DNA of 64,000 bases from an uncultured Chloroflexia bacterium (GCA_963826225.1 CAWGWF010000001.1:2483023-2547022), one strand, 5' to 3'; shown: positions 20,525 to 53,003, numbered from the stretch's first letter. The notes: generated from the letters alone by a model not told the origin. Translations and numbers: made by a program.

Positions 20525-20593
20525 CGGCGAGAGGCGAGCCACGAGGCGACCCGGAACGGCGAGGCACCGCCCAACCCGAGCCGGAGAGGTGCG

Positions 20594-20690
20594 TGGCGGG
20601 AGCGCATGGGAGTCGAACCCACCGCGCGACGCCGGGCGCCGCGCCACCGGTTTTGAAGACCGGGGAGCCCACCGGGACCCCTCCGCTCCC
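20594..20690 (-). tRNA. selC: tRNA-Sec (selC), anticodon UCA, long variable arm, 97 nt including CCA
   Basis: Minus-strand read GGGAGCGG-AG-GGGUCC-CGGU-GGGCUC-CC-CCGGU-CUUCAAA-ACCGG-[24-nt extra arm GGCGCGGCG...GUCGCGC]-GUGGG-UUCGACU-CCCAU-GCGCUCCC-G-CCA. This gives a 6-bp D-stem with 4-nt D-loop, a UCA anticodon in a CUUCAAA loop, a 5-bp T-stem and a 7/8-bp acceptor stem. Confidence 0.8.
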
Positions 20691-20759
20691 AGCGCCGATG
20701 GTAGCGCCGCCGCCCGCCTCGGGACCGGGCTGCGCGTCCGGCGTCGTATCCTCCCGCGC

Positions 20760-32320: not shown

Positions 32321-32325
32321 CCCGG

Positions 32326-33165
32326 TCACATCGTGCCTCCGGGTGCAGTCGCCGCCGGCGATGGTGCGGCGTCCCGGAGCTGCCTGGCGCGCCGGGCGCT
32401 CACCCGCATCGCGACCAGGATCGCGATCGCCGTGCCGCCCACCACCAGCGTCGAGATGGCGTTGATCTCGGGCGTGACGCCGAACCGGATCCGGGAGTAG
32501 ATGTAGAGCGGCAGGGTGGACGACCCCACCCCGGCGTTGAACGACGTGATGATCAGGTCGTCGAACGACAGGGCGAAGCTGATCAGGGCGCCGGCGGCGA
32601 TCGCCGGCCCCAGGAGCGGCAGGGTCACGTAGCGGAGCGTCTCGCGCGGCGTGGCGCCCAGGTCCCGGGCGGCCTCCTCCATCCGCGGGTCCAGCGACAC
32701 CGCCCGTGCCCGGACGATGATCGCCACGTACGAGATCGAGAACGCGATGTGGGCGACGGCGATCTGGAGCATCGACCCGTTGGCGCCCATCAGCAGCGCG
32801 AAGAACAGCAGCAGGCTGATGCCGGTGACCACCTCGGGCGTCACCATCGGCAGCAGGATCAGCGTGTCCGCGGCGCCGGCGGCCCGGCTGGACCGGATGC
32901 GGGCGAGGCCCAGGCCCAGCAGCGTGCCCAGCATGGTCGTGACGATCACCGAGACGAAGGCGACCTGGAGGGTGACGCCCAGCGCGGACAGGAGCGCGTC
33001 GTTCCCGAACAGCTCCGGGTACCACTTGAGCGTGAAGCCGCGCCAGGCGAAGTTGCGCTTCGAATCATTGAACGAGAACAGGATGAGGATGACGATCGGC
33101 GCGAACAGGAACGTGTACACCGCGTACGCGAAGCCGGTCAGGATCGGGTTCCGGTCCCGCCACAT
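32326..33165 (-). CDS. ABC transporter permease, PotC/PotI-like (polyamine/opine-type importer family)
   Basis: 279 aa, six TMS, EAA-like loop DLGATPRETLRYVTLPLLGPAI. Confidence 0.8.
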   Translation of the reverse strand: MWRDRNPILTGFAYAVYTFLFAPIVILILFSFNDSKRNFAWRGFTLKWYPELFGNDALLSALGVTLQVAFVSVIVTTMLGTLLGLGLARIRSSRAAGAADTLILLPMVTPEVVTGISLLLFFALLMGANGSMLQIAVAHIAFSISYVAIIVRARAVSLDPRMEEAARDLGATPRETLRYVTLPLLGPAIAAGALISFALSFDDLIITSFNAGVGSSTLPLYIYSRIRFGVTPEINAISTLVVGGTAIAILVAMRVSARRARQLRDAAPSPAATAPGGTM

Positions 33166-34010
33166 CAGCCGATCACCTCCCGGCGCAGGAAGCGCAGCCC
33201 GGCCAGCGTCCCGGCGATCGTGACCACGATCAGCAGGAACCCGAGTGCCGCCCCGTACGGCCAGTCACGGGCCGACATGAACAGCGTCTGGACGATCTTG
33301 GCGATGGTGGTCGTCTGGGCGCCGCCGAGCAGATCGGGCGTCACGAAGTCCCCGATCGAGGGGATGAACACCAGGATCGCCGCCGCGATGATGCCCGGCA
33401 TCGTGAGCGGCAGCGTGACGTGGAAGAACGCTGCGCGACCGCTGGCGTAGAGGTCCCGGGCGGCGTGGACGAGGGCGGGATCCACGCGGTCGATGGATAC
33501 GTAGAGGGGCAGGATCGCGAACGGCAGGAACCCGTAGGTCATGCCCATGATCACGGCGAAGTCCGTGTTGAGCAGCTGGATCGGCTCCGCCATGCCGAGG
33601 GTCGCCAGCACGCTGTTCACGACCCCGTTGTCACGCAGGATGATCATCCAGGCATAGGTCCGGATCACGAAGCTGGTCCAGAACGGGAGCATGACCAGGA
33701 CGATCAGCAGCGCCTTGTGGCGTCCGCCGTAGCGGCTGATCCAGTACGCCACCGGGTACGCGACGAGAATCGCGAACACCGTGGTCGCCGTCGCGTACTT
33801 GAGCGAGTTGCCGACCGTCGGCAGGAAGTCGGGCTCCAGGGCTCGCCGGTAGTTGTGGAGCCCGAACCCCTCGAACAGGACACCGCCGAACTGGTCGCGG
33901 GTGGCCAGGCTGACCACGAAGATGACGGCCAGCGGGGCGAGGAAGAAGACGAGCAGCCACGAGAGGCCCGGCGCGAACAGGGCTGCGTCGCGAAACCGGC
34001 GTCCGCCCAC
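33165..34010 (-). CDS. ABC transporter permease, PotB/PotH-like
   Basis: 281 aa, six TMS, EAA loop AARDLYASGRAAFFHVTLPLTMPGI. Confidence 0.8.
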   Translation of the reverse strand: MGGRRFRDAALFAPGLSWLLVFFLAPLAVIFVVSLATRDQFGGVLFEGFGLHNYRRALEPDFLPTVGNSLKYATATTVFAILVAYPVAYWISRYGGRHKALLIVLVMLPFWTSFVIRTYAWMIILRDNGVVNSVLATLGMAEPIQLLNTDFAVIMGMTYGFLPFAILPLYVSIDRVDPALVHAARDLYASGRAAFFHVTLPLTMPGIIAAAILVFIPSIGDFVTPDLLGGAQTTTIAKIVQTLFMSARDWPYGAALGFLLIVVTIAGTLAGLRFLRREVIG

Positions 34011-34055
34011 GACGTTGCGATCGGCGGTGAGGTGGCTGCTCGTCGATGCCCGGGG

Positions 34056-35240
34056 TCAGCCGCCTGCCCGCAGCTTCGTCCAGCGGTCCGAGTACTTCTG
34101 CTCGTCCGGCCCGAGGTCCAGGATCTCCTGGAGCTTCTCGACCAGGGCCTGGTCCGGGTTCACCGTGGGATCCGCCAGGATCTCCGGGTCGATGTATGCC
34201 TTGGCGGCCTCGTTGGGCCCCATGTACCCGATGTAGTTGGTGTTGTCGGCCGCGACCTGCGGGTCGAGCATGTAGTTGATGAACGCGTGGGCCGCGATCG
34301 GGTGCTGGGCGCCCTGGAGCAGGACCATCGTGTCCGAGCCGCGGATCCCGCCCTCCTCGGGGATGTAGTAGACGACCGTGTCCCGCTCCTCCTGGACCTG
34401 GTAGACGTCCGCGCCCCAGGCGTGCATCAGCCACACGTCGCCGGTTGACAGCACGCCGATGTCGTCGGTCGTGTACGTGCGCAGCAGCGGCTTCTGCTTC
34501 TCGAGCAGGGCCAGCGCCTCGTCCAGCTCCGTGTCGCTGGTCGTGTTGGCGCTGTACCCGAGCCTGATGAGCGCCGCAGCGAAGACCTCGCGCATGTCGT
34601 CGAGCATCGCCATCTTGCCGGACCACTGCGGATCCCAGAGCGGCTCCCAGGAGGTCAGCTCCCCCTCGATCTTCGCGGTGTCGTAGGCGACCCCCGTGGT
34701 CCACCACATGTACGGCATCGAGTGGGCGTTGCCCGGGTCGTAGCCGGGGTCCTGCCACTCGGCGCCCAGGTTGACCTTGTTCGGGATCAGGCTCAGGTCG
34801 AGGGGCTGGATGAGGTTCCGATCCACGTAGCCCTTGATGTAGGTCGAGGTGGGGAACGTCACGTCGTAGCCGCTGTTGCCGGCGTTGATCTTGGCGTTCA
34901 TGGTCTCGGCGCTGTCGAAGAAGTCGTAGGTGACCTTGACCCCGGTCGCTTCCTCGAACTTCGCGATCGTTTCCTCGCCGATGTAGTCGGCCCAGTTGTA
35001 GACGTACAGCTGGCCCTCCGGCTCGGGGACCGGGGTGGGCTCGGCGGTGGGCTCGGCGGAGGGCTCGGCGGATGCGCCGGGCGTGGCAGGGGCCGCGGTC
35101 GGGGCGGCGGCGGACGGGGAGGCGGCGCCCCCGGAGCACGCGGCGAGGGCCGTCGCCGCGCCCGCGCCGGCCATTCCCTGCAGCATCCGCCGCCGGCTGA
35201 TCGGTCGCCGGGGCACCCAGATGCGCTCGATGTCACTCAC
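34056..35240 (-). CDS. ABC transporter periplasmic substrate-binding lipoprotein, PotD/PotF family
   Basis: 394 aa. Tat/lipoprotein signal RRRMLQGMAGAGAATALAACSG. LYVYNWADYIGEETIAKFEEATGVKVTYDFF is a PotD/PotF-type N-terminal signature. Confidence 0.8.
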   Translation of the reverse strand: MSDIERIWVPRRPISRRRMLQGMAGAGAATALAACSGGAASPSAAAPTAAPATPGASAEPSAEPTAEPTPVPEPEGQLYVYNWADYIGEETIAKFEEATGVKVTYDFFDSAETMNAKINAGNSGYDVTFPTSTYIKGYVDRNLIQPLDLSLIPNKVNLGAEWQDPGYDPGNAHSMPYMWWTTGVAYDTAKIEGELTSWEPLWDPQWSGKMAMLDDMREVFAAALIRLGYSANTTSDTELDEALALLEKQKPLLRTYTTDDIGVLSTGDVWLMHAWGADVYQVQEERDTVVYYIPEEGGIRGSDTMVLLQGAQHPIAAHAFINYMLDPQVAADNTNYIGYMGPNEAAKAYIDPEILADPTVNPDQALVEKLQEILDLGPDEQKYSDRWTKLRAGG

Positions 35241-36439
35241 GGTCGTTCCTCCTCTTGCGCGTGCGCCTCCACGGCGCGCTCCAGGACCAGCACGTCCGAC
35301 GGATTCCAGTCCAGCCGTACCCGGTCACCGGGCGCCGGCCGCTCAACGGTCCTTGGCACGACGGCCGTCAGCACCAGACCACCGTCGGTCCGGACCTGGT
35401 GGCTGACGGATGTGCCCAGATAGGCGCTCTGCAGCAGATGGCCCCGGAGCACCGGCCTCGGGTCGGCGGCGGCCGCGGCCTCGCCGTCCCGTGCCAGGCG
35501 CATCGCCTCCGGGCGGATCGCAAGCTCGACGGCCGCTCCCACGGCCGGTGCCGCCGCGGCCGTCCGATCGTCGGCCGACGCCGCCGCGGCCAGGCAGCGC
35601 TCCCCGCCGTCCAGGCGCACCACCAGCTCGCCGGCCGCCATGGACTCGATCACGCCCGCGAGCAGGTTGGTGGTGCCGATGAAGTCGGCGACGAAGCGGG
35701 TGGCCGGCCGGTCGTAGAGCTCCTCGGGGGCGCCCAGCTGCTCCACGTGGCCGCCGCGCATCACGGCGATCCGGTCGGACAGCGCCAGCGCCTCCTCCTG
35801 GTCGTGGGTGACGTACACGAAGGTGATCCCGACCTCCAGCTGGACGCGCTTGAGCTCCACCTGGAGCTGGCGGCGCAGCTTGAGGTCCAGCGCCCCGAGC
35901 GGCTCGTCGAGCAGCAGCACCGTGGGCTCGCACACGAGCGCGCGGGCCAGCGCGACCCGCTGCTGCTGGCCACCGGACAGCTGCTCCGGGCGCCGCTTGT
36001 CGTAGCCCGGCAGGTGGACCAGGTCGAGCGCCGCCCCGACGCGGCGCCTGATGTCCGCGTCCTGGGTCTTGCGGCGGCGGAGCCCGAAGGCGACGTTCTC
36101 GAACACGGTCAGGTGGGGGAACAGCGCGTAGCTCTGGAACACCATGTTCACCGGCCGGCGCTCCGGGGGCTCGTCGGTGATGTCCCGGCCCAGGAGCTCG
36201 ATGCGGCCGCTGGTGGGGTACTCGAAGCCCCCGATCATCCGCAGGGTCGTCGTCTTGCCGCAGCCGGACGGGCCGAGCAGCGAGAAGAACTCGCCGCTCT
36301 GGATGTCGAGCGACACGCCGTCCACCGCGGTGACATCCGCGAAGCGCTTGGTGAGGTCGACGAGGCGCAGCTCGACGCCGCCAGCGACGGGGCTCGTCAC
36401 CGGGGTCCTCGCCTGCGAGCCGTGGACCGAACCATGCAC
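35237..36439 (-). CDS. ABC transporter ATP-binding protein, PotA-like with C-terminal TOBE-like domain
   Basis: Walker A LLGPSGCGKTT, signature LSGGQQQRVALARAL, Walker B LLLDEPLGALD, H-loop VTHDQ. Confidence 0.85.
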   Translation of the reverse strand: MHGSVHGSQARTPVTSPVAGGVELRLVDLTKRFADVTAVDGVSLDIQSGEFFSLLGPSGCGKTTTLRMIGGFEYPTSGRIELLGRDITDEPPERRPVNMVFQSYALFPHLTVFENVAFGLRRRKTQDADIRRRVGAALDLVHLPGYDKRRPEQLSGGQQQRVALARALVCEPTVLLLDEPLGALDLKLRRQLQVELKRVQLEVGITFVYVTHDQEEALALSDRIAVMRGGHVEQLGAPEELYDRPATRFVADFIGTTNLLAGVIESMAAGELVVRLDGGERCLAAAASADDRTAAAAPAVGAAVELAIRPEAMRLARDGEAAAAADPRPVLRGHLLQSAYLGTSVSHQVRTDGGLVLTAVVPRTVERPAPGDRVRLDWNPSDVLVLERAVEAHAQEEERP

Positions 36440-36799
36440 ACGCCTCCCGTGCGTCTTCGACCGGCGCGCGACAACGAAGCGACGGTCGATGACCCATCCG
36501 CTCCGTCGAGTCTCCCGTGGCCGTCAAGCGGCAAACAAGGGCCGTTCGGTCCCCCACCTGAGCCGCCTCGGCCCGGGCGACCGGAGCGGCGCTGCGGCAG
36601 CCACGGCGCCCCGGACGAGGGCATCGCGTGGCCGCGACGGCGTGGCCGGCGGGCGTCGCCCCGACCGCGACCGCGTCGCCGGACGAGGGCCTCGCGTCGC
36701 GGTGATGCCGCAGCCGGCGTGGCGTCGCCCCGGCCTCCCGGGCGGTTGCACGGACCCGTACACTCTCACGATCGGACCCTCCGCACGGCGAGGTAGCAC

Positions 36800-38722
36800 A
36801 TGCCGAAGGAGTACGTCCGCCTGACCACGCCGCTCGTGCGCGACGGCGACCGCCGCTCCGGGGCGCCTCTCCGCCCAGCCAGCTGGGACGAGGCGCTGCA
36901 GAGGACGGTCGACGGGCTCCGGGCGGCAGGCGAGGCGCACGGCTCCCGGACGTACGGGATCTTCAGCTGCAGCCGCTCCACCAACGAGGTGAACTTCGCG
37001 GCCGGCAAGTTCTCCCGGGTCGTCCTGGGCAGCAACAACATCGACAGCTGCAACCGCACCTGACACGCCCCCTCTGTCGCCGGTCTGGCGACCGTGTTCG
37101 GCGCTGGCGGGTGCACCAGCTCATACCGTGAGATCGAGGAGACGGACGTCATCCTCCTGTGGGGCAGCAACGCCCGGGAGACGCATCCGATCTTCTTCCA
37201 CCACCTCCTGAAGGGGGTCCGCAACGGTGCCCGGCTGTACGCCGTGGACCCGCGGCGCACCTCGTCCGCGGAGTGGGCCGACCTGTGGCTGGGCCTGGAC
37301 GTCGGGACGGACATCGTGATGGCCAACGCGATGGGCCGCGAGATCATCGCCGCCGGGCTGGCCGACGAGGAGTTCATTCACCGGGCCACGACCGGCTTCG
37401 AGGCCTACAAGGCGACGGTGGAGCCCTACACGCTGGAGCGCGCGCAGCGCGAGACCGGCGTCCCGGCCGATGCGATCCGCGAGGCGGCGCACGCGTACGC
37501 CACCGCCAACCGGGCCATGATCTGCTGGACGCTGGGCATCACGGAGCACCACAACGCGGTGGACAACGTGCTGGCGCTCATCAACCTGTCGCTGCTGACG
37601 GGGCACGTGGGCAAATGGGGCAGCGGCCTCAACCCGCTCCGGGGCCAGAACAACGTCCAGGGTGGCGGCGACAGCGGCGCGCTGCCGGACCGGCTGCCGG
37701 GCTTCCAGCACGTGGAGAACGACGAGATCCGCGCCCGCTTCGACAAGGCGTGGGGCGTCACGGTCCCGCCCCGCCGCGGATGGAACCTCACGGCGATGTA
37801 CGACGCGATGGAGCGCGGGGACCTCACGGCCCTCTACTGCATCGGCGAGAACCCGGTCCAGTCCGAGGCGGACGGGCATCGCGTGCGGCGTCTGCTCGAG
37901 GGACTCGAGTTCATGGCCGTCCAGGACATCTTCCTGACCGCCACCGCCGAGCTGGCGGACGTGGTCCTCCCGGCCGCGGCCGCTTGGGCCGAGACCGACG
38001 GCACGGTCACCAACTCCGAGCGGCGCGTTCAGCGCGTGCGCAAGGCGCTGGATCCGCCGGGCGATGCCCGCGACGACCTGTGGATCATCTTCGAGCTGGC
38101 GCGCCGGATGGGCCACGACTGGGGCGAGGCCTCCGCCGAGGCCGCCTGGAACGAGTTCCGGACGCTCTCGCCCGCGCACACCGGGATGAGCTACGCGCGG
38201 CTCGAGGCCGAGGACGGGCTCCAGTGGCCGTGCTACGACGAGACCCACCCCGGCGAGCCGTTCCTCCACTCGCGGCTGTGGGCGAACCCCGTGCCCGGCA
38301 ACCGGGCGCCGTTCGTGCCCGTTGAGCACGACCCGCCGGTGGAGGCGCTGGACGACGAGTTCCCGATGCGTCTCACCACGGGCCGCCACCTGGACTCGTA
38401 CAACACGGGCGTCCAGTCCGGTCCGCTGCGATACCCGAAGCGTCGCCGCGAGGCGATCGACCTGTGCCCGGAGGATCTGCTCCGGATGGGCCTGGCCGAG
38501 GGTGACATGGTGCGGATCGTGTCCCGCCGCGGTGCCGTCGAGGCACCCGTGCGGGTGGATCGCTCGCTGCGTCCCGGCCTCGCGTTCATGACCCTGCACA
38601 GCCCGGACGAGGTGGACGTCAACGTCCTGACGATCGACGCCACGGACTGGAAGTCCGGCACGGCCGAGTTCAAGGCCGCAGCGGTCCGCATCGAGAAGCT
38701 CGGCGCGCCGGTCGCGGGGTAG
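36800..38722 (+). CDS. formate-dehydrogenase-like molybdopterin (bis-MGD) oxidoreductase catalytic subunit, selenoprotein (TGA 37061..37063 read as Sec), lacking the N-terminal Fe-S domain
   Basis: ORFs 36800..37063 and 37094..38722 are in one frame across a single TGA. The context SNNIDSCNRT-U-HAPSVAGL matches the E. coli FdhF Sec140 context SNNVDCCARV-U-HGPSVAGL. Full FdhF-like MopB and C-terminal MGD domains follow. The protein starts at the position equivalent to FdhF residue ~60 (no CxxCxxC cluster). Confidence 0.8.
37064..37096 (+). other. SECIS-like mRNA hairpin immediately 3' of the Sec UGA
   Basis: CACGCCCCCUCU-GUCGCC-GGUCU-GGCGAC: 6-bp stem with GGUCU apical loop starting 13 nt after UGA. 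Resembles the E. coli fdhF SECIS (GCA-GGUCU-GCA apex). Confidence 0.55.
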
Positions 38723-38830
38723 CCGCCGGCCGGGCCGCGCGGCGGGCGCCCCCGCCTCGCCCGCGCCTCGCCCGCGCCTCGCCCGCGCCCCCGCCTCGCC
38801 GAACCGAACCCTGACCCGCAGGATTTCACT

Positions 38831-38854
38831 CGCAGTGAACATCCGCTCGTCACC
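38831..38854. promoter_or_regulatory. palindromic operator-like box 1: GGAT-TTCACT-cgc-AGTGAA-CATCC
   Basis: Read directly. Second copy at 39009..39030 overlaps the start of the XRE-family gene. A CCACGGAC-N12-GTCCGTGG hairpin (38863..38890) lies between them. Confidence 0.4.
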
Positions 38855-39008
38855 ACGGACGGTTCACGCCATGTCCGTGGCTCCCGGCGAGCCCAAGCAC
38901 CCGTAGACGCCCCGAACCAGTCGGGATCGCATCTCCGGTGGGCCGAGACCGGGGTTCCGCAAGGCACGCGAGCCGCGCAAGCCCCGGGTGAGCCCCCCGG
39001 TGTTCACT

Positions 39009-39030
39009 GTGAGTGAAATGTCGCCGGTTC
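39009..39030. promoter_or_regulatory. palindromic operator-like box 2: GTG-TTCACT-gtg-AGTGAA-ATG (ends in the start codon of the XRE gene)
   Basis: Same TTCACT-N3-AGTGAA core as box 1, 178 bp downstream. Confidence 0.4.
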
Positions 39031-39869
39031 GACGCGCCGCCGTGTTGCCGACTCCTGCTCGGTCTGCCTTGGTGCGCATGGCCGTCGAGGTCGGGCAGCA
39101 GCTCCGCGAGGAGCGCATCCGGCGCCGCTGGACGCTCCGGCAGGTGGCGGACCGGGCGGGCGTCGCACTCGGCGTCGTGCACGACGCGGAGTCGGGGAGC
39201 GTCCTCACGCTTGAGTCGTACGCCAGACTGGCCGTCGCGCTCGGGCTGCGGCCCTCGCTCCTCGCGACCCGTCCGGACGCACGCGCCGCCCGGTCCGCCG
39301 GCGGCGAGGACATCGTCCACGCAGCGATGGGCGAGCTCGAGGCACGCGTCCTGGAACGACCCAGCCGCACCATCGCCATCGACGAGCCGTACCAGCACTA
39401 CCAGTTCGCGGGTCGGGCGGACGTGCTGGCATGGGACCGGGAGAACCTGCTCCACATCGAGAACCGGACCCGGTTCCCGAACCTCCAGCAGGCCGCCGGC
39501 GCGTACAACGCCAAGCGCCAGTACCTGGCCCGAAGCATGGCAGAGCGGCTGGATCTCGGGCCGCACGGCTGGCGGAGCGTGACCCACGTGATGGCCTGCG
39601 CCTGGTCCGCTGAGGTCCTGCACGTGCTGCGCCTGCGACGCGCCACGTTCAACGCGCTGTGCCCGGACCCTCCGGACGCGCTCGAGGCGTGGCTCCGCGG
39701 CGAGGCACCGGCCGCGGCTGCCGTCACCAGCACGCTCGTCCTGCTGGACCCGCTGGTGCCGTTCGGATCCCGCCGGCGGACGATCGTGCCGATGATCGAA
39801 CCGCCGCTGGTCCGTCCCCGCCATCGGGGCTACGCCGAGATCGCCGATGCGCTCCAACGGGTCGCATGA
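39028..39869 (+). CDS. XRE-family helix-turn-helix transcriptional regulator with uncharacterised C-terminal domain
   Basis: HTH region QQLREERIRRRWTLRQVADRAGVALGVVHDAESG. ~280 aa. Start ambiguous (GTG 38988, ATG 39028 or ATG 39088). Confidence 0.6.
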
Positions 39870-39991
39870 CCGGTGCGGACCGGGTACCGCGTGCCGCGCC
39901 GCAGCCTTGACTTCCGCGTCACCGGTGGGACCATGCGCTGACCCCAGAGCCGTCGCGTCCGCGGCCGCCGGGAGATCGGAGGGAACGGCCC

Positions 39992-40312
39992 ATGCCGCAT
40001 TACCTGATCCGCGCGTCCTACAGCGTCTCGGGCATCCAGGGGGTCCTGAAGGAAGGTGCCGCGAGCCGCATGAAGGTCGTCGAGTCCCTGGTCGCCAGCG
40101 GTGGCGGCCGCCTCGAGGCCGCCTACTGGGCCTTCGGCGACGATGACTTCATCGCGATCGCCGAGCTGCCGGACAACGCGGCGGCCGCGTCGGTCGCCAG
40201 CACGGTCTCGGCGAGCGGCGCCGTCAGCGCGAAGACCACCGTCCTGCTGACGGCCGACGAGATGGACGAAGCGATCTCGCGCCGCCCCGCCTACCGGGCG
40301 CCGGGCGCCTGA
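39992..40312 (+). CDS. GYD-domain protein
   Basis: 106 aa. MPHYLIRASYSVSGIQGVLKEGAASRMKVVESLVASGGGRLEAAYWAFGDDDFIAIAELPDNAAAAS has the GYD-family layout. GGAGGGAA RBS. Confidence 0.75.
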   Translation: MPHYLIRASYSVSGIQGVLKEGAASRMKVVESLVASGGGRLEAAYWAFGDDDFIAIAELPDNAAAASVASTVSASGAVSAKTTVLLTADEMDEAISRRPAYRAPGA

Positions 40313-40489
40313 CCACGGGACTCCGGCCGGTGGATCCGCCGCGGATCCGCCGGCCGACTCCGTAGCCGCAGCGGCCGCGGGCACCGGCGCCGCGGCCACC
40401 GACCCCGTTGCCGCGCCGCCCGCGGGCACCGGCATCGCGACGCCGGCCGCAACCCACGAAGGGCCGAACGACGGGTCGGAAGACGACCG

Positions 40490-42478
40490 ATGGACCCCTG
40501 CGCGGCCGCTACACTGCCGGGCATGGACCTGCACATCGCCGACATCGCGCCGACGCCGGCCGAGCGGGCCGCGATCGACGCGATCCTGGACCCGGAGATC
40601 GGACCCGTCCGCGGCGGCTGGGACGGTGGCGAGCGTGATGTCGATCGGGACGGCCGCATCGCGCGGGGCGGGCACGAGGCGCGGTCCCGTCGGGACCTGC
40701 TGCTCCCCGCCCTCCACGCAGCCCAGGACCGCGTGGGCTGGATCAGCCCGGGTGCCCTTGCCCACATCTGCCGCCGCCTGACGGTGCCCCCGGCCGAGGC
40801 GTACGGCGTGGCCTCGTTCTACGCGCTCCTGTCCACCGAGCCCCGGCCGCCCGCCGCGGTCCACGTGTGCGACGACATGGCCTGCCGCCTGGCGGGCGCG
40901 GAGCGGGTCTGCGAGGAGCTGGAGCAGGCGCTGGGACCCGCGGGCCATCCCCGGGACGGGTCGCAGATGACCTGGATGCGCAGCCCCTGCATCGGCCAGT
41001 GCGAGCGCGCCCCGGCCGCGATGTACACCATCGCCGGCGACCCGCCGATCCGCGACGCGACCGGCCCGGTTGACGCGAAAGGGATCATCGCCACCCTCGG
41101 CGAGGGCCTCGTGGAGCAGGGCCATCCGCACCCCGGCCACGACGCGGCGCATGCCCTCGCCGGGACGCTGGACACGAAGCCGACGCCGGAGCGCCTGGAG
41201 GGGATCCGCCGGTTCATCCCCCAGGCGGGGGAGCGCGGCCTGCGCCTGCTCGCGCGCGTCGGCCGGATCGACCCCACCAGCCTCACCGACTACCTGGCCA
41301 ACGACGGGTACCGCGCCCTCAAGGAGGCCACGCTCCTGGGCCCGGACCGGGTCATCCAGGAGATGATCACGGCGGAGGTCCTGGGGCGCGGCGGGGCCGC
41401 CTTCCCGGCGGGCCAGAAGTGGGCCGCGGCTCGGGCGTCCACCGGGCGCCCCAAGAGCATCGTGTGCAACGCGGACGAGGCGGAGCCCGGCACGTTCAAG
41501 GACCGGGCGATCCTGGAGGAGGACCCGTTCGCCCTGGTCGAGGCGATGACGATCGCGTCCTTCGCCGTCGGCGCGGAGCTGGGGTTCATGTACCTGCGCG
41601 GCGAGTATCCGCTGGCCGAGGCGCGGATGCAGAACGCGATCGACCGGGCGCGGGAGCACGGCCTGCTGGGCGACAACATCATGGACGCGGGCTTCTCGTT
41701 CGACATCGAGATCCGGCGCGGCGGCGGCGCCTACGTGTGCGGCGAGGGCACCGCGATCTACGAGTCCATCGAGGGCAAGCGCGGGGAGCCGCGCAACAAG
41801 GCCGCCCGGTCCACCACCGCCGGCCTGTTCCAGAAGCCCACGGTCCTCAACAACGTCGAGACCCTCGCCAACGTCCCCGACATCGTCCTCGAAGGTGGCG
41901 AGATCTACGCGGCCCTCGGCACGGACCGGTCCAAGGGCCACAAGCTGTTCAGCGTCTCGGGGCACGTCGTCCGGCCGGGCGTGTACGAGTCGGAGTTCGG
42001 GATCACGCTGCGCGACCTGATCGAGCTCGCCGGCGGCGTCCCCGGCGGCCGGGCCGTCAAGGCGGTCAACGTGGGCGGCGCTGCGGGCTCCTTCGTGGGG
42101 CCGGACCAGATCCACATGCCGCTCACGTTCGAGCACGCCAAGGAGATCGGCGCGTCGCTGGGGGCCGGCGCGATCCTCGTGTTCGACGAGACGACCGACA
42201 TGGTGGACATCCTGCGGCGCATCGCCGAGTTCTTCCGCGACGAGTCCTGCGGGCAGTGCGTCCCCTGCCGGGTGGGAACCGTGCGCCAGGAGGAGCTGCT
42301 GGCGCGCCTGGCCGCCGGCCGGCCACTGGGCACCATCGACGACGAGCTCGCCCTGCTCCGCGACCTCGGCCAGGTCATGCGCGACGCCTCGATCTGCGGC
42401 CTCGGCCAGACCGCCAACGACGCCGTCCGGACGGGCCTGCGGTTCACCGGCCTGGAGCCCGTCGGGGCCGGCCGATGA
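40490..42478 (+). CDS. fused NuoE-like (2Fe-2S thioredoxin-like) and NuoF-like (FMN, NAD(H), 4Fe-4S) flavoprotein; FdsG-FdsB-type NAD-linked formate dehydrogenase diaphorase module
   Basis: 662 aa intact. N-terminal part [10 protein letters not shown]...[14 protein letters not shown]...[11 protein letters not shown] (NuoE Cys ligands). C-terminal part [46 protein letters not shown] (NuoF). Likely start at ATG 40523. Confidence 0.85.
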
Positions 42479-42642
42479 GCGAGACGCCGCGCACCATGGG
42501 CGAGTCCCACGAGGCACCGGACGGGACGCAGCGGGCGCTGTACACCGGCGTGGACCCGGCCATCTTCACCTCGCCGCCGGCGCGATCGCCCGGTCGTCCC
42601 GGGCCGCGCCGCCGGACCGCGATCGAGCCCCCGTCGAGATGA
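42475..42642 (+). CDS. hypothetical 55-aa protein, translationally coupled on both sides (ATGA overlaps); possible small FDH subunit (FdsD-like)
   Basis: [55 protein letters not shown]. Position between the nuoEF-like and fdhA-N genes. No recognisable motif. Confidence 0.3.
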
Positions 42643-43578
42643 CCATCGACGGTCACCCGGTCACCGTGCCCGCCGGCTCGACCATCCTCGAGGCCTGCCG
42701 CGCGCAGGGCATCGACATCCCAACCCTGTGCTACGGCGAAACGCTCACAGCCCGAGGGCGTCTGCCGGCTGTGCGTGGTGGACACGGGCGGTCGCGCGCT
42801 GACGCCGTCCTGCTCGGCCAAGGTCTCGCAGGGCATGGACGTCCACACGGACAGCGAGAAGGTCCGCCTGTCGCGCAAGCTCGTGCTGGAGCTGCTGGGC
42901 TCGTCGGTGGACGTGGACCTGGCCGGGCCCGAGCTGCCGGACGGGTCCATCGCCGGCTACATGGCGCGCTACGGGGCGGATCCCGGCCGCTTCGGGCCGC
43001 CCTCGCCGCCGGCGCCGGCCGGGGACCGCGACGCGCGCCTGTCCGGCCACCACCACGCGCCGGACCCCGCGGTCGCCGAGACGGTCGCGCAGCCGGTCAA
43101 GGTGGACAACGACCTCTACGTCCGCGACTACGCGAAATGCATCCTCTGCTACAAGTGCGTCGAGGCGTGCGGCGTGGACGCCCAGAACACGTTCGCGATC
43201 TCGGTGGCCGGTCGCGGCTTCGACGCCCGCGTGTCCACCGAGTACGACGTGGGCCTCAACGACTCCGCCTGCGTGTACTGCGGCAACTGCATCAACGTGT
43301 GCCCGACCGGCGCGCTGATGTTCCGCTCCGAGTACGAGATGCGGCAGGCGGGCACCTGGGACGAGTCCCGCCAGACCGTGACCGACACGATCTGCCCGTA
43401 CTGCGGCGTGGGCTGCACGCTCTCGCTGCACGTGCAGGACAACCGGATCGTGAAGGTGCTCTCGCCCGCGGACTCCGAGGTCACGGAGGGCAACCTGTGC
43501 GTGAAGGGCCGCTTCGGGTTCGACTTCGTGCAGCTGCTGCCCAAGGGATCGCCCCGGGAGGACGCGCCGGCGGGCTGA
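42639..43578 (+). pseudogene. stand-alone FdhA/NuoG N-terminal Fe-S domain protein (2Fe-2S plus 4Fe-4S clusters), with one apparent +1 frameshift near 42750
   Basis: [37 protein letters not shown] | [14 protein letters not shown]...[14 protein letters not shown]...[16 protein letters not shown]...[10 protein letters not shown]...[11 protein letters not shown]. It ends exactly where the 36800 FDH-like protein begins by homology. Confidence 0.7.
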
Positions 43579-43602
43579 TCGGCAGGTCGCCGGGCGGGCC
43601 GG

Positions 43603-46600
43603 TTACACGCCCACGTCGCGCAGGTCGCAGCGCAGACAGCGGCTCGCCTCCTCGATCGTTCCTCCCGCGAATAGCCGGCGTCGTCCTGGGCGCCGGTGTC
43701 GTCCCGAGCGCCGCCGCCGCCCCGGGCGCCGCCGCGCCGCTCGGGACGGAAGCGAGGGCCGGTCTCCACCCGCAGCGGGGCGAGCTCGCTCAGGTTCTCG
43801 GCCGGGGCAAGATGCTCCTCGATGTCGCCGCTGCCGCCCAGGTACCGGTCGATGGCCTGGGCCGCGGCGCGGCCGCGAGCGATCGCCTCCACCGACGAGG
43901 CGGGACCGATCCTCGGGCCGACGACGACGAACACGCCGTCGGCCGGTGTCGGCAGGCCGTCCGGGCTCCCGTTGGGACCATCCGGGATGTCGTCCGGGTA
44001 GCCCGCGCGGGCGTCCGCCGAGATGAGGATCGCGTCGTGACCCTGCTCCCGGAGCGCCTCGATGGGGAAGCTCGGCGAGTCGGTCCGGATCGTGACCCCG
44101 GCCGCCTCGATGATCGCGAGGTCGCGCTGCAGGGCACGGACGATCGGGCTCGTCTTGCGCAGCTGCGGCTCCCCGGACCCGCCCGCGGGCATCGCGTAGC
44201 GGAGCATGCCCCCGGGCTCGGACAGCGTCTCCAGCACCGTGACGTCGTGGCGACCACGCCTGGCCAGGTAGTAGGCGGCAGTCAGGCCGTCGGGGCCCGA
44301 GCCGATCACCGCGACGGACCTGCCCGACCGCGGACCCCCGGCCGCCGGCACGCGGGCCTCGGCCCGGCCGCCGTACCGGATGGCGGCGTCCTTGAGCGCC
44401 CGGACGGCGACATTCTCGTCGAGATCCCCGCGCCGGCATGACTTCTCGCAGGGGTGGAAGCAGGCAACGCCGCAAACCGACGGCAGCGGCAGCTTCTCGC
44501 GCACGACGAGGTATGCGGCCTCGAAGTCGCCCTGGCCCACGAGCCGGATGTACCGATGGGCCTCCACCCCGGCGGGGCACAGGTGCGCGCACGGAGCGAC
44601 GACGAGCCCCGGGCACATGCCGGCCCGACAGTGCCCGCGCTCGATGTGCTCGACGTACTCGTCGCGGAAGTAGCGGAGCGTGGTGATCACCGGGTTGGGC
44701 GCCGTCTGACCCAGACCGCACAGCGACGTCGAGCCGACCGTCCGGGCCAGCTGCTCGAGGACCGGCAGGTCCTCCAGCCTGCCATCGCCCGCACAGATCC
44801 GCTCCAGGATCTCGAGCATCCGGCCGGTCCCCTCCCGGCAGGGGGTGCACTGGCCACACGACTCGTCCCGCGTGAAGGCCAGGAAGTAGCGGGCGATGTC
44901 CACCATGCAGGTGCTCTCGTCCATGATCACGAGGCCGCCCGAGCCCATGATCGATCCGGCCTCGCGCAGGCTCTCGTAGTCGATCGGGAGGTCGGCGAGG
45001 CTGGCTGGCAGGCACCCGCCGGACGGACCGCCGGTCTGGGCCGCCTTGAACCTGCCGCCCCCGGGGATGCCGCCGCCGACGTCGCGGACGACCTCGCCCA
45101 GCGTGATCCCCATCGGGACCTCGATGAGCCCGGGCCGGTTGACCTTGCCCGTGAGCGCGAACGTCTTGGTGCCCTTGCTGGTGGCCGTGCCGAACCTCGC
45201 GTACCACGCGGCGCCCTGGCGGAGGATGCTGGCGACGTTGGCCAGCGTCTCCACGTTGTTGATGTTCGACGGCCGGCCGAACAGCCCCCGGACGGCCGGG
45301 TACGGGGGCCGGGGCCGGGGCTGCCCACGACGCCCCTCGAGGCTGGCGATGAGCGCCGTCTCCTCGCCGCACACGAAGGCGCCGGCTCCCTGCCGGATGT
45401 CGATGTCGAAGGCGAAGCCGCTGCCAAGGATGTCGGGGCCCAGCAGGCCGAGCTCGCGAGCCTGGCCGATGGCGGTCTCGAGCCGGGCGATGGCGAGCGG
45501 GTACTCGGCGCGAACGTAGACGTAGCCCCGCTCCGCGCCGATCGCGAAGCCGGCGATCGTCATGCCCTCGAGGACCGCGTGCGGGTCACCCTCCAGCACG
45601 GAGCGGTCCATGAACGCGCCCGGGTCACCCTCGTCGGCATTGCAGATGAGGGACTTGGGCGATCCGGGCGCCGCGCGGCACAGCTCCCACTTGGCGCCGG
45701 TGGGGAAGCCACCGCCGCCGCGACCTCGGAGGCCGGACGCCTTGACCTCCTCGACCACGTCTGCGGGGTGCATCGCGAGGGCGCGCCGGAGGCCCGCGTA
45801 GCCATCTCGGGCCAGGTAGTGGTCGAGGCTCGTCGGGTCGATCAGGCCGCAGTTGCGGAGCGCGATCCGGACCTGGCCGCGCATCACCGGGAGGTCCTCG
45901 AGGCGCGGGATGCCCGCGATGGTGCCGTCGCCGGCGGTGCCCAGCGCGCGGTCGGCCGGTGGCTCGCCGCGGACCACGTGGGCGGCCAGGATCCCGGCCA
46001 CGTGGTCCGGCGCGACCGGGCCGTAGACGACCCGGGGCAGGCCCGGCACCTCCACGTCCAGCAGCGGCTCCGCGTAGCACAGCCCGAAGCAGCCGACGGG
46101 CACGATGGCGGCGTCCACGCCCAACCGGGCCAGCTCCGTCCGGACCGTCGGGACCAGGTCACCGGCGCCGGCGGCCAGGCCGCAGGTGGCCGTGCCGATC
46201 GAGATGACCGGTCGCTCGCCGCCGTGGAGGCGGTGCCAGCCCTCCCGCGCCTGCGCGGTTCGCCGGACCAGGTCGTGGAGGCCCGCGGCGCGGGGCGCGG
46301 CGCCGGCCAGATCCGGGACGGCAGCCGCCGCGACGTCCTGCGTCGCCAGCCCGAGGCCGCCGGCGATCCCGGATGCGTCCAGGCCGTCCACCAGGGCTCG
46401 CGCGGAGGCCGGCGTCTGGCGCCCCCGGGCGCGCCCGTTCGCGACGATCACCGGCGCCAGGGCGCAGGAGCCGAAGCAGGCCGCCGTCTCCAGCGTGCAC
46501 CCGCGGTCCGGCGTCGTTCCCCCGGCGGTCACCCCGAGATGCGTCTCGAGCGCCCGGAGCAGCCCCGCGCTGCCGCGCACGTGGCAGGCGGTCCCGCGGC

Positions 46601-46922
46601 AGACGGTGACGGTGTTGGCACCCCGCGGCTCCAGGTGGAACCCGGCGTAGAAGCTGGCCACCCCGAACACCCGGGCGGGCGACACTCGCAGGTGCGCCGC
46701 TGCGGCCTCGATCGCCGGCGCCGGCAGGTAGCCGGCCGTGCCCTGGATGAACTGGAGCACGGGGATCACGAAGCCCGGTTCGGCGGGGAAGCGCCGCGCG
46801 AGCTCAGCCGGCCAGTCGATCGCTGGCGCGCCGGCGCCCGGTGCGGACGCATCCACCCCGGGCGCGGACGCATCGACCACCGGCGCCCGTCCTTCGACCA
46901 CCGGCGGCGGATCCGCGATCAC
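43603..46922 (-). pseudogene. giant fusion flavoprotein: NuoE-like, thioredoxin-like [2Fe-2S], NuoF-like, 2x[4Fe-4S] ferredoxin, GltD-like NAD(P)H/FAD oxidoreductase; apparent frameshift about 25 codons before the stop (~43668-43685)
   Basis: ~1106 codons from GTG 46922 (GTGA overlap with the fdhA stop). NuoE block VASFYAGFHL...CRGTAC. NuoF blocks SLICNADEGDPGAFMDR, GAGAFVCGEETA, ESCGQCTPCREGT. GltD-like blocks [32 protein letters not shown]. Canonical GltD C-terminus [17 protein letters not shown] is in a different frame ending at TAA 43603. Confidence 0.7.
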
Positions 46923-49684
46923 GGCGCCACCTTCTCCACCCGGATCGCGCAGTGCTTGAGCTCCGCGGTCTGCGTGACCGGGTCCCCCGCCTCGATCGTG
47001 AGCACGTTCGCGTTCGCCTCCGCGAAGTGGAACGCCATCCAGCACACTCCGGGCGGCGACCGGTGGGTGACCCACGCCCGGACGTCCACCGAGCCGCGCC
47101 GGGACGTCACCCGCACCACCTCGCCGTCCGAGATCCCCAGCCGGGCCGCGTCGTCCGGGCTGAGCTCGATCAGCTCCTCCCCGCACACGGCCTCGAACCC
47201 CCCGGACCGCCGGGTCTGGGTGGCCGTCTGGTAGTGCCAAAGCCGCCGTCCCGTGCTGAGCACCAGCGGATAGTCGGCGTCCGGCGGCTCGGCCGGGGGA
47301 ACCCACTCGGCGGGAACGAACCGCCCCCTGCCGCGGGTGAACGCCCCGCCGGCGTGGAGGTACGGTGTGCCCGGGTGGTCCAGGGTGGGCGCCGGCCACT
47401 GGATGCCGACCTGCTCGCACCGCTCCCAGGTGATGCCGCCGTAGATCGGGCTGAGCGAGCGCAGCTCCTCCCAGATGTCCGCGGGCCCGGTGAACCCCAT
47501 CTCGTACCCCAGCCGCCGGGCCAGCTCCGCGAATATCCACCAGTCGGGGCGAGCATCTTCCGGCGGCTCCACGGCGCGACGGACCCGCTGAACCCGGCGC
47601 TCGGTGTTCGTGAAGGTCCCGTCCACCTCCGGCCAGGACGCCGCCGGGAACACGATGTCGGCAAGGGCGGTCGTCTCGGTCGGGAAGCAGTCATTGACGA
47701 TGACGAGCTCGGCCGCCCGGAGACAGGCGGCGACGTGCGCCGTGTTGGGCTCGCTCATCGCGATGTTCTCGCCGAACACGTACAGCGCCCGCAGGCTTCC
47801 GTCCTCCAGCCCCTCGAGCATGGACGGGATCGTGCGGCCGGGCCGGGTCGGCAGGCCGGGGCGGCCCCACGCCTGCTCGAACCGGGCCGCGACCATCGGG
47901 TCGTCCACCCGCTGGTAGCCGGGGTAGACGGCGGGCAGCGCACCCATGTCGCAGGCGCCCTGGACGTTGTTCTGGCCGCGCAGCGGGTTGAGCCCGGCCG
48001 ACGGCTTGCCGATGTTTCCCAGCAGCAGCTGGAGATTCGCGAGGGCCGTGACGTTGGCCGTGCCGGAGATGTGCTCGGTGATGCCCAAGGTGTAGTAGAC
48101 GCCGGCGGATTCGGCCTCGCCCAGCACCCGGGCGACGCGCCGGATGGTCTCCGCGTCCACGCCCGTGACCGCCGCCGCCCGCTCCACGGGCCAGTCGTCG
48201 ATCGTCGGCCGGAAGGCCTCGAAGCCCTCCGTGTGCTGCTCGACGAACGCCCGGTCCTCCCAGCCGCGATCCAGAATCTCATGCATCAGCCCGTTGAGGA
48301 GCGCGATGTCCGTCCCCACCCGGTGCTGGACGTGGATGTCCGCCCAGCGACACAGGTCGATCGTCCGGGGGTCGCACACGATGAGCGTCGCGCCCCGCTT
48401 GCGGGCCCGCTTCATGTACGACGCGATGACCGGGTGGGCCTCGGTCGTGTTGGAGCCGATGACCAGCAGCACGCGCGCCTGCTCGATCTCCCCGATCGAG
48501 TTCGTCATGGCCCCGGATCCGAAGCTGGTCGCCAGACCGGCGACAGTCGGAGCGTGTCACGTTCTCGCGCAGTGATCGAGGTTGTTGGTCCCGATCACCG
48601 CGCGTGCGAACTTCATCGCCGCGTAGTTGTGCTCGTTGGTGGACCGCGCACAGGCGATCAGCCCGATGGCGTCCGCGCCGTGCCTGTCCCGGATCCCGCG
48701 CAGGCGGTCCGCGGCCGTGTCCAGGGCCTCGTTCCAGGTCACGGGCTCCAGTGGCGCCTCCTTCGTCCGCCGCAGGAGTGGCGTGGTCAAGCGGTCGGCG
48801 CTGGACGTGAAGTCGTACGCGAAGCGGCCCTTGACGCACAGCATCCCGTCGTTGGGCGGCACGCCCTCCACGCCCGTGACCCGGACGACGCGGTTCGCGG
48901 CCCGGTCCACGTGGAGCTCCACCTGGCAGCCGGTGCCGCAGTAGGGGCAGGTTGTGCGCACCTTCTCGAGGGTCCACGCGCGGCCCTTGCCGATCGACTT
49001 CTTCTCGACCAGGGCCCCCGTCGGGCACAGCTGGACGCACTCCCCGCAGGACAGGCAGGAGGACGCGCCCATCGGCAGGTCCGCGTCGCAGATGACCCGT
49101 GTCTCGCCGCCGCGGTAGCCCATGTCAAGGACCTCGTTCACCACGAGGTCGTTGCACCCGCGGATGCATCGGAAGCAGCGGATGCATGCATCCGGGTCCC
49201 GGACGATGAACTGGCTGGACCGGTCAACCGGGTGGCGGCGGGCCGGCGGCGCGAACGAGGGGCGGCGGACGCCCAGGCGATAGGCGGCCTCGGCCAGCTC
49301 GCACCGGCCGGCGGCCTCGCAGGACAGGCAATCGTGGGTGCCGGCGGCGAGGAGCAGCTCCACATTGGTCCGGCGCGCCTCCAGGACCCGCTCCGAGGCG
49401 CCGGTCACGACCATGCCGTCGCGCGCCAGGAGCGTACAGGCCGTCTGCAGCGTGCCGCTCCCCTCGACCTGCACCACGCACGTCCGGCACAGCCCCGCCT
49501 GCCCCACCCGCGGGTGGTGGCACAGGCTGGGGACGTAGATGCCGTTCGCCTTCGCGGCCTCGAGGACCGTCTGCCCGGAGCGGGCCGACACCGGACGCCC
49601 GTCGATGACGAGACGCAGAGCCCCGGCGTCGCGGCCATCCCCGGGCCGGGCGGCGGGCCGTTGGGGCGCGGTTGCGACGTTCAT
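46919..49684 (-). CDS. fdhA: formate dehydrogenase alpha subunit, full length (2Fe-2S, 4Fe-4S domains plus molybdopterin domain), selenoprotein with TGA at 48557..48559 read as Sec
   Basis: ORFs 48557..49684 and 46919..48508 are contiguous in frame across one TGA. Context [35 protein letters not shown]. N-terminal CxxCxxC clusters (CHHPRVGQAGLCRTC, CLSCEAAGRCE, CIRCFRCIRGC, CLSCGECVQLCPTGAL, CPYCGTGCQ). Start ATG 49684 (MNVATAP...). Confidence 0.85.
48524..48556 (-). other. SECIS-like hairpin 3' of the Sec UGA of fdhA
   Basis: Minus-strand read UGA-CACGCUCCGACU-GUCGCC-GGUCU-GGCGAC. Identical stem-loop to the one at 37076..37092. Confidence 0.55.
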
Positions 49685-52348: not shown

Positions 52349-53003
52349 CCAGCCACTGTTCCGCCGGGCGCTGGCGACCCTGATCAGCGCCCAGTTCGAC
52401 ATGACCGTCGTGGGCGAGGGCGAGAACGGGCGGGACGCCCTGGACAAGGTCCGGGCGCTGCAGCCGGATCTCGTGGTCATGGACGTCAACATGCCGGGCG
52501 CCGATGGCGTCGACGGCGTGCGCGCGATCCGCCAGGCGGGGTTCGCGACGCCGATCGTGATGCTCACGGTGTCCGAGGACGACGACGACCTGTTCGAGTC
52601 GATCAAGGCCGGCGCCAACGGGTATCTCCTCAAGAACGTCCGCCCGGAGCAGCTGTTCGAGGACCTGCGCGGCGTCATGCACGGCGAGGCCCCCATCGCG
52701 CCCGCCGTCGCCACCAGGCTCCTGGAGGCCCTCCGCACGGGTGGCATCCCGGCCCGCGGCGCCTCGACCGCTTCGCCGCCCGCCTCCGACAACATCCTCA
52801 CCCGCCGCGAGTCGGAGATCCTCCAGCTGGTCGCCGACGGCCTGTCCAACAAGGAGATCGCCAACCAGCTGACGATCACCGAGGGCACCGTCAAGAACCA
52901 CGTCCACAACGCGCTGGAGAAGCTGCACCTCACCAACCGGGTGCAAGCCGCCGCCTACGCCGTGCGCCAGGGCTACGCGAACCAGGAGCGCACCCGGGAC
53001 TGA
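52305..53003 (+). CDS. response regulator, NarL/FixJ (LuxR-type HTH) family
   Basis: Receiver domain RILLVDDQPLFRRAL...LVVMDVNMPGADG...GANGYLLK and LuxR HTH LTRRESEILQLVADGLSNKEIANQLTITEGTVKNHV. GTG 52305 chosen (ATG 52230 would overlap the kinase by 118 nt). Confidence 0.8.
   Translation: MSHVPPRLRILLVDDQPLFRRALATLISAQFDMTVVGEGENGRDALDKVRALQPDLVVMDVNMPGADGVDGVRAIRQAGFATPIVMLTVSEDDDDLFESIKAGANGYLLKNVRPEQLFEDLRGVMHGEAPIAPAVATRLLEALRTGGIPARGASTASPPASDNILTRRESEILQLVADGLSNKEIANQLTITEGTVKNHVHNALEKLHLTNRVQAAAYAVRQGYANQERTRD

Follow-up and report, generated by a model that had tools for sequence, protein, structure and literature searches.

A candidate family of selenocysteine-containing, NAD(P)+-linked formate dehydrogenases with the alpha subunit divided between two polypeptides

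CO2 reduction has made metal-dependent formate dehydrogenases (FDHs) a subject of intensive study, and the enzymes are classified by subunit architecture. In FdhH of Escherichia coli, domain I is built from the first ~60 residues plus segments found later in the chain, and Lys44 in the sequence 'CLKG' connects the molybdopterin-proximal [4Fe-4S] cluster, FS0, to the pterin. In the FDH of Rhodobacter capsulatus, where FS0 is called A1, a histidine-ligated cluster (A4) sits at the dimer interface, outside the pathway from molybdenum to flavin mononucleotide (FMN) (PMC7171172). Here we analyze a 64,000-nucleotide stretch of DNA from an uncultured Chloroflexia bacterium (GCA_963826225.1, CAWGWF010000001.1:2483023-2547022), referred to as the window and numbered from its first letter, in which the FDH alpha subunit appears to be encoded by two genes: one for a catalytic protein that contains selenocysteine (Sec) and one for an iron-sulfur (Fe-S) protein, with the gene for a NuoE-NuoF fusion (NuoEF), the diaphorase subunit, lying between them. 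From comparison of the sequences, it is probable that the window holds one member of a widespread family of soluble, Sec-containing, NAD(P)+-linked Mo/W FDHs made of three polypeptides, in place of the customary FdsA, FdsB, and FdsG or Fdh1A and Fdh1B, in which the alpha subunit is divided, and that the extra bases in its Fe-S gene are sequence errors.

The catalytic protein is read from the ATG at 36800 to a TGA at 38720-38722, given readthrough of the sole in-frame TGA (Table 1). Pfam identifies a Molybdopterin domain (residues 7-435, full profile) and a Molydop_binding domain (523-627), and no Fe-S domain or PF04879 in the 640-residue protein. In an alignment with E. coli FdhH (1AA6), residue 7 falls on FdhH residue 61 and the match covers FdhH 61-688, so the protein begins right after the ~60-residue segment that binds FS0. 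In a search of solved structures, it aligns to residues 308-935 of R. capsulatus FdsA. A TAG at 36794-36796 shuts the frame one codon 5' of the ATG, and a tblastn search with the Fe-S protein gave no match upstream of the catalytic gene within the window. These results bear out much of a sequence-only reading made earlier, which had described a Sec-containing catalytic protein that starts near residue 60 of FdhF and lacks an Fe-S domain, with a TAG just 5' of its ATG and no Fe-S remnant upstream. The G+C content of the window is 73%, and third-codon-position G+C gives an uninterrupted coding signal on the + strand from 36778 to 43657. No promoter or terminator signal above shuffled expectation was found in a scan of 36300..43800.

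The sequence 'IDSCNRT-U-HAPSVAGL' of the catalytic protein aligns over 'VDCCARV-U-HGPSVAGL' of FdhH, which contains the Sec140/His141 pair, and 'GLNPLRGQNNVQG' aligns over the FdhH Arg333 motif with the arginine kept. The TGA is at the identical codon in 81 of 81 loci. A hairpin of the Sec insertion sequence (SECIS) type begins 13 nucleotides past the UGA and is near-invariant in nucleotides over the 81 loci, while adjoining synonymous sites vary; it shows compensatory double changes, to U-A in one locus and to G-C in another. The same SECIS core follows the TGA of a second FDH gene in the window. With an in-frame UGA, a SECIS hairpin, and tRNA-Sec, SelA, SelB, and SelD all encoded in the window, the catalytic gene has the features of a bacterial selenoprotein gene. 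The selA, selB, selD, and tRNA-Sec genes and a mobA-like gene make up a cluster for selenium and cofactor functions at 14675..21797.

The missing Fe-S portion of the alpha subunit had been assigned in the sequence-only reading to a single open reading frame (ORF) at 42639..43578. This 940-nucleotide interval is not a single ORF: its frame shifts near 42747, just after 'CYGETLT', and the gene as a whole reads in three frames. A protein search matched P0001 from contig L081, which is 96% identical and forms a single ORF of 366 residues, with an N-terminal part continuing into ...VEMTIDG. Alignment of the window with L081 gave 96% nucleotide identity and revealed three extra single bases in the window. 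The single ORF of P0001 and the DNA alignment therefore define the real Fe-S gene, which starts at 42475, where its ATG overlaps the stop codon of the NuoEF gene (ATGA, 42475-42478). The frame-corrected protein contains Fer2_4, a ferredoxin-type 4Fe-4S dicluster, and Molybdop_Fe4S4 domains and ends 15 residues past the last of these. Thus the cluster domains and the end of the protein soon after Molybdop_Fe4S4 were read correctly, and its start and its unbroken frame were not. The same reading had treated 42475..42642 as a separate coupled gene of 55 residues, comparable to FdsD. This segment has no Pfam match; it belongs to the Fe-S subunit as its N-terminus, displaced here by the frame shifts, and is in frame with that subunit in P0001 and other relatives. 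The Pro-rich N-terminal extension of the Fe-S subunit (42475..42640; approximately I[FL]xxPPARPSRPP) precedes the Fe-S domain in 50+ loci and is conserved from Chloroflexota to Planctomycetota. Because the motif is in frame across several phyla, 42475..42642 is coding sequence of the Fe-S subunit and not an FdsD-like gene. Clustering the neighborhoods of related loci yielded no conserved small gene that would represent FdsD.

One [2Fe-2S], two ferredoxin-type [4Fe-4S], and one FS0 cluster are predicted in the Fe-S protein, and all 16 cysteines that would coordinate them are invariant in 56 of 56 family members. The protein ends 8-27 residues past 'C[IV]KGRF' in 53 of these 56. Its best sequence matches in the PDB are FdsA proteins of the Rhodobacter type, over residues 27-303 (9wxb_B, then R. 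capsulatus 6tg9_A), and its predicted fold best matches FdsA of Rhodobacter FDH, followed by HydA of HydABCSL, M. extorquens FDH1, and NuoG of complex I. It thereby appears to provide the HoxU/NuoG-like region of an NAD+-dependent FDH with its on-pathway clusters. The histidine-ligated [4Fe-4S] cluster (PF10588; His-Cys3) has no Pfam match in the window Fe-S protein, and its motif occurs in none of the 56 members. In the predicted structure, the Pro-rich extension is modeled at a predicted local distance difference test (pLDDT) score of 70-86 and packs against the 2Fe-2S domain. In place of the histidine-ligated cluster is a segment at ~42890..43110 (residues ~85-160) that is conserved family-wide (SSVDL..A....Y..RYGA.P.RFGPP....RD....) and includes a near-invariant GHH(H); a role for it in metal binding or at an interface is possible.

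The NuoEF protein contains the Pfam domains 2Fe-2S_thioredx, Complex1_51K, SLBB, and NADH_4Fe-4S and matches the NCBIfam families nuoF_fam and nuoE_fam. It stops 11 residues past NADH_4Fe-4S (573-651 of 662). An electron-bifurcating enzyme of the Bfu/HydABC type was considered and set aside, since the NuoF part has no additional ferredoxin-type clusters at its C-terminus.

The window also encodes a second, unsplit FDH, which is convergent with the split operon, the two stop codons being 25 nucleotides apart. The genome, that of a soil-type member of the Chloroflexota, consequently holds both the split and the unsplit form. In the unsplit paralog, which keeps the His-cluster motif, Molybdop_Fe4S4 spans residues 240-293 and Molybdopterin begins at 298; from these domain borders, the cut in the split enzyme lies in the short linker between the two domains. 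The FdhA gene of the second unit is followed, with a GTGA overlap, by a gene for a NuoE-NuoF protein fused to a GltD-like part (Fer4_20 and NAD_binding_8) that seemingly lacks the second Rossmann domain.

To see how far the arrangement extends, relatives of the catalytic protein were sought in a scan of one genome per species, which found at least 583, and the best 80 were kept. These best 80 are 69-85% identical and represent Chloroflexota (Limnocylindria-type, Thermomicrobiales), Acidobacteriota, Planctomycetota, Methylomirabilota/Rokubacteria, and others. The start of the catalytic ORF ('[MV]xKxYxRLTxPLVR') and the TGA in 'DSCNRT*HAPSV' are identical in 80 of the 80, and Fe-S coding sequence was found upstream of the catalytic gene in none of them. 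The order catalytic, NuoEF, Fe-S, on one strand, occurs in 55 of the 80, most of the others ending short of that point. The NuoEF and Fe-S genes are adjacent in nearly all loci, with one exception (L070). Long open upstream frames in some loci had raised the possibility of NuoEF fused to the Fe-S protein; this was rejected, because the frames are not the same and high GC accounts for the open stretches. Protein searches with two Fe-S subunits as queries (Chloroflexota and Planctomycetota; 120 clusters listed each) gave a matching picture, with the Fe-S proteins among the 240 clusters listed all 292-392 residues long, all ending in PF04879, and none with PF00384. The names of these clusters, from metagenome-assembled genomes, are only generic ('2Fe-2S iron-sulfur cluster-binding protein' or 'predicted molybdopterin-dependent oxidoreductase YjgC'). 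Among the best 50%-identity representatives, long unsplit proteins reach at most 46% identity, as against 58-71% for split members from other phyla; the representative library listed mostly fragments and is informative only for the upper limit on unsplit proteins. The identity pattern, which is not a phylogeny, fits one old fission followed by spread. Judged from these sequences, the split is ancient and widespread.

The homolog search that the sequence-only reading had suggested therefore did recover the same split in related genomes, and recovered it far too often for the rarity that the reading had assumed, since the division is present in all 80 loci kept and in all 240 Fe-S clusters listed. 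The reading had also named a misjoin as one finding that would overturn the split. The frame breaks in the window do show that its sequence quality is imperfect, which lends some color to an assembly artefact or to a rearrangement private to this genome. The same catalytic start and gene order are nevertheless found in dozens of independent assemblies from differing studies, sequencing technologies, and phyla. This recurrence excludes a misjoin, and we give an artefact or private rearrangement practically no weight. The further suggestion that the split may be undescribed still stands: searching of full-text literature found no description of it, which, coverage being incomplete, is absence of evidence only, and the split is not described in a 2026 review of metal FDHs, the ForCE paper, a deep-sea Chloroflexi paper, or a fusion/fission survey.

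The comparisons support an FdsABG/Fdh1AB-like, NAD(P)-linked metal FDH with alpha in two polypeptides, the gene for the Fe-S half following that for the diaphorase. As in the FdhH/FdsA clade, the catalytic protein has predicted Molybdopterin and dinucleotide-binding domains and counterparts of FdhH U140, H141, and R333, the Sec/Cys-His pair and the arginine. The N-terminal Cys4 motif for FS0, which in that clade belongs to the same polypeptide, sits instead at the C-terminus of the Fe-S protein. As in FdsABG and Fdh1AB, there is a putative NuoF-like FMN/NADH subunit with a [4Fe-4S] cluster and a NuoE-like 2Fe-2S module, here in one 662-residue protein; in place of their single alpha polypeptide are two genes, with NuoEF between them in 55 loci. 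Hence the proposal of an NAD-linked enzyme of the FdsGB/FdsD/FdsA type with a split FdsA stands for the division of alpha, and fails for FdsD, which is missing, as is PF10588. The division is also visible in TIGR01591, the NCBIfam equivalog for Fdh-alpha, which is parted at positions 49/53: positions 1-49 match the C-terminal end of the Fe-S protein (50.2 bits) and positions 53-672 match the catalytic protein (634.8 bits).

That last score is just below the curated cut-off of 666.25, and formate activity is predicted from sequence, so one could argue that the enzyme is a molybdopterin oxidoreductase acting on something besides formate or CO2. The shortfall is due to the first ~50 positions of the profile, which the Fe-S protein matches. 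NasC, the family that ranks next, reaches 405 where its cut-off is 1100, the Sec-His pair and the equivalent of Arg333 are conserved, and FdhD is a frequent neighbor in related loci. We regard another substrate as very unlikely.

It is similarly improbable that NuoEF and the Fe-S protein are a stand-alone diaphorase/ferredoxin module for some other enzyme, with the catalytic protein acting independently or with another partner. This explanation draws on the kilobases of unrelated genes that part the catalytic gene from NuoEF in most Chloroflexota loci, and on the HoxU-like subunits that serve other catalytic modules in hydrogenases. It has to contend with an Fe-S protein that ends in Molybdop_Fe4S4, a domain with no known role outside molybdopterin subunits, and with a catalytic protein that lacks exactly this domain. 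Gene order is moreover shared across phyla, and the genes are contiguous in most loci outside the Chloroflexota: the catalytic gene and NuoEF overlap or are <150 nucleotides apart in 14 of 19 loci from these other phyla. Of 52 Chloroflexota loci, 42 carry 0.4-7.3 kb of cargo between the two genes; a GYD gene recurs in this cargo, and a helix-turn-helix (HTH) gene is found in some loci.

In the divided FDH that we favor, formate would be oxidized at the Mo/W-bis(pyranopterin guanine dinucleotide) (bisPGD)-Sec site of the catalytic subunit, which has no Fe-S cluster of its own. FS0 and a conserved lysine ('CVKGRF') would be supplied by the last ~55 residues of the ~365-residue HoxU-like subunit, so that two chains would jointly make up domain I of the molybdoenzyme. 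With this lysine carried by the Fe-S subunit, domain I would need completion in trans. Electrons could then flow through the two ferredoxin-type [4Fe-4S] clusters and the [2Fe-2S] cluster of the Fe-S subunit to the [4Fe-4S] cluster and FMN of NuoEF, and on to NAD(P)+; the enzyme may also work in reverse. Because A4 of the R. capsulatus enzyme is off-pathway, all of the on-pathway centers would be retained in the split enzyme. Lacking A4 and thereby the dimer interface, the split enzyme is predicted to be a monomeric heterotrimer. We infer that the three proteins act as one complex, and likewise the catalytic direction, the metal (Mo or W), and the acceptor (NAD or NADP).

Several observations weigh against this interpretation. 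That the catalytic and Fe-S subunits physically associate is deduced from synteny and domain logic, and the activity and expression of every family member are predictions. Both in the window and in the majority of Chloroflexota loci, the catalytic gene is parted from NuoEF by other genes, over 0.4-7.3 kb, which means that co-transcription is not assured. The model of the Fe-S subunit is of moderate confidence only (mean pLDDT 69), with low values for the dicluster and high ones for the extension and the 2Fe-2S domain. FdhD was not found within the 64-kb window. Lastly, the Fe-S gene of the window is not translatable as sequenced.

This last point belongs to a wider pattern. Frame-aware segmentation located clustered single-base frame breaks in at least 6 genes of the window (Table 1). 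For selD, a tblastn search with the intact SelD of L009 gave four collinear pieces in three frames. In both selD and the Fe-S gene, three +1 shifts restore the original frame, and each shifted segment in the affected genes still codes for conserved protein sequence. These breaks could be genuine, marking the window copy as a decaying pseudogene operon in an organism that is losing Sec-dependent formate oxidation, the family itself being real. Three insertions do break the Fe-S gene relative to an intact contig of 96% identity, and selD has three frame changes, selB has one, and the diaphorase gene of the second FDH is broken near 43658, so that four affected genes share one selenium/formate trait. 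A decay confined to selenium-related genes is hard to reconcile with the breaks in two unrelated genes, a major facilitator superfamily (MFS) transporter (~178 and ~321) and another, small gene (~56268). In the shifted segments, decay through stop codons or missense changes is not seen, the genes for the catalytic protein and NuoEF are unbroken, and the three Fe-S insertions and three selD shifts are all +1, as in a systematic error mode. The pseudogene explanation is thus unlikely. Because the shifted segments keep conserved protein and unrelated genes are hit as well, sequence error in an error-prone assembly is the likelier origin of the breaks than recent pseudogenisation, and we hold to it with fairly good confidence; the breaks look like an insertion-biased error mode.

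Whether the fission matters for function is a separate question. In all 81 members seen, the catalytic subunit has Sec, and the split may therefore uncouple the synthesis and maturation of the Sec/Mo subunit from those of the diaphorase. It is conceivable, if on balance doubtful, that the fission is functionally meaningful and not neutral, defining a distinct class of FDH with a cluster-free Mo/W-Sec subunit, the domain I of which a HoxU-like subunit completes in trans by contributing FS0 and the lysine. If so, failed readthrough of the UGA would leave an 87-residue peptide, and not a truncated Fe-S protein able to poison the NuoEF module, and the split could permit docking and undocking of the catalytic subunit.

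The genes between the two halves of alpha were listed in the sequence-only reading as the NuoE-NuoF fusion and the 55-residue ORF. The fusion is confirmed; a gene for an XRE-type HTH protein and one for a GYD-domain protein, both between the catalytic gene and NuoEF, had gone unmentioned. Homologs of the HTH protein occupy the same position in three loci (L003, L013, and L039), and the GYD gene does so in eight, of the Limnocylindria type (L016, L021, L022, L041, L042, L045, L047, and L071). Either protein may regulate the operon or serve it as an accessory factor. A GAF-domain histidine kinase (HisKA_3) and a LuxR-type response regulator (50542..53003, + strand) adjoin the FDH genes here and also in L004 and L039, and this pair may provide regulation. 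Directly upstream of the catalytic gene, at 30821..36439 on the - strand, lies an apparent operon, judged by eye, for an ATP-binding cassette transporter of the spermidine/putrescine type (ATPase, two permeases, and binding protein); it appears unrelated to the FDH. Among the frequent neighbors in other loci are SelD (45 loci) and FdhD (33 loci). ARAGORN also reported a 'tRNA-???' with a two-base anticodon at 18092..18181 (- strand), within the selA coding region, which is probably a false positive.

Table 1. Features of the window, grouped as split FDH, other genes, and frame breaks
Feature	Position	Strand	Basis
Catalytic subunit of split FDH, 640 residues	36800..38722	+	Pfam, TIGR01591, FdhH alignment
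Sec codon, in-frame TGA, motif DSCNRT-U-HAPSV	37061..37063	+	Aligns to FdhH Sec140
SECIS-type hairpin, GUCGCC-GGUCU-GGCGAC	37076..37092	+	Minimum-free-energy fold
XRE-type HTH protein, 293 residues	38988..39869	+	Pfam HTH_31, HTH_3
GYD-domain protein, 106 residues	39992..40312	+	Pfam GYD, E 5e-24
NuoE-NuoF fusion, diaphorase subunit, 662 residues (2Fe-2S, FMN/NAD(P)H site, 4Fe-4S)	40490..42478	+	Pfam, NCBIfam
Fe-S subunit, HoxU/NuoG-N-terminal-like, C-terminal FS0 4Fe-4S domain	42475..43578	+	Frame-corrected Pfam, P0001 alignment
Second FDH unit, unsplit (Sec FdhA at 46919..49684)	43603..49684	-	His-ligated cluster motif kept
mobA-like gene, selB, selA	14675..18650	-	Pfam NTP_transf_3; GTP_EFTU and SelB-wing_3; SelA
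tRNA-Sec, anticodon TCA	20594..20692	-	ARAGORN
selD, selenophosphate synthetase	20749..21797	+	Pfam AIRS, AIRS_C on spliced protein
MFS transporter frame breaks (gene 1..612)	~178, ~321	-	Frame-aware segmentation
selB frame break	~16333	-	Frame-aware segmentation
selD frame breaks (frames 0>1>2>0)	21125-21388	+	tblastn with L009 SelD
Fe-S gene insertions	~42588, ~42607, ~42747	+	Alignment to L081
Second-FDH diaphorase gene frame break	~43658	-	Frame-aware segmentation
Small gene frame break	~56268		Frame-aware segmentation

The data suggest that in a large family, mostly from uncultured bacteria of soil and sediment, the catalytic site and the proximal Fe-S cluster reside on separate polypeptides, and hence that the FS0 segment of domain I can come in trans. 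For enzyme engineering, the split points to modular catalytic subunits. In current annotation, the Fe-S genes have no label beyond '2Fe-2S cluster-binding protein' or 'YjgC-like', and the catalytic gene is truncated at the TGA. For metabolic inference, the split bears on how formate use is read from the genomes of Limnocylindria, Acidobacteriota, Planctomycetota, and Methylomirabilota.

The split FDH, conserved and uncharacterised, is a variation on a well-understood theme and not a new kind of system. With FdsGBA(D) of R. capsulatus and Cupriavidus necator (PDB 6TG9/6TGA), it shares the predicted Mo-bisPGD, FS0 (A1), A2, A3, the [2Fe-2S] cluster A5, the NuoF-type [4Fe-4S] cluster, and FMN. 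FdsA is a single chain of 958 residues with Cys in the active site, whereas here the chain is cut between FS0 and the molybdopterin domains, the Fe-S half is encoded last, and Sec takes the place of Cys. The split enzyme differs further in its fused NuoE and NuoF, in the Pro-rich N-terminal extension of its Fe-S subunit, in lacking A4 at the FdsA dimer interface, and in that FdsD was not found. FDH1 of Methylorubrum extorquens (Fdh1AB; PDB 7VW6, 8J83) is likewise soluble, its beta subunit is a NuoE-NuoF fusion, and its alpha subunit matches both halves. Fdh1A, in contrast, is unsplit (~990 residues), contains Cys, and is a tungsten enzyme; the split enzyme would contain Mo or W.

The Fe-S subunit by itself resembles HoxU of the NAD+-reducing [NiFe] hydrogenases (HoxFUYH; PDB 5XF9), a small subunit like the N-terminal part of NuoG that bridges a NuoE/F-type diaphorase and a catalytic module, and both NCBIfam HoxU and the HoxU chain in the PDB match it. 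HoxU serves a hydrogenase and has no Molybdop_Fe4S4 domain, whereas the Fe-S subunit of the split FDH adds the molybdoenzyme's own cluster. For the catalytic subunit, the closest solved relatives (E 1e-129 to 9e-150) are E. coli FdhH (FdhF) and the FdhF of the hydrogen-dependent CO2 reductase (PDB 1AA6, 7QV7), which have the same Sec-His and Arg site but keep the ~60-residue N-terminal FS0 segment in the chain. A precedent for a Mo/W-bisPGD catalytic subunit in two polypeptides is formylmethanofuran dehydrogenase, FwdB/FwdD. There, FwdD is the separate C-terminal dinucleotide-binding domain and FS0 stays on the catalytic chain, while the split FDH separates the N-terminal FS0 instead.

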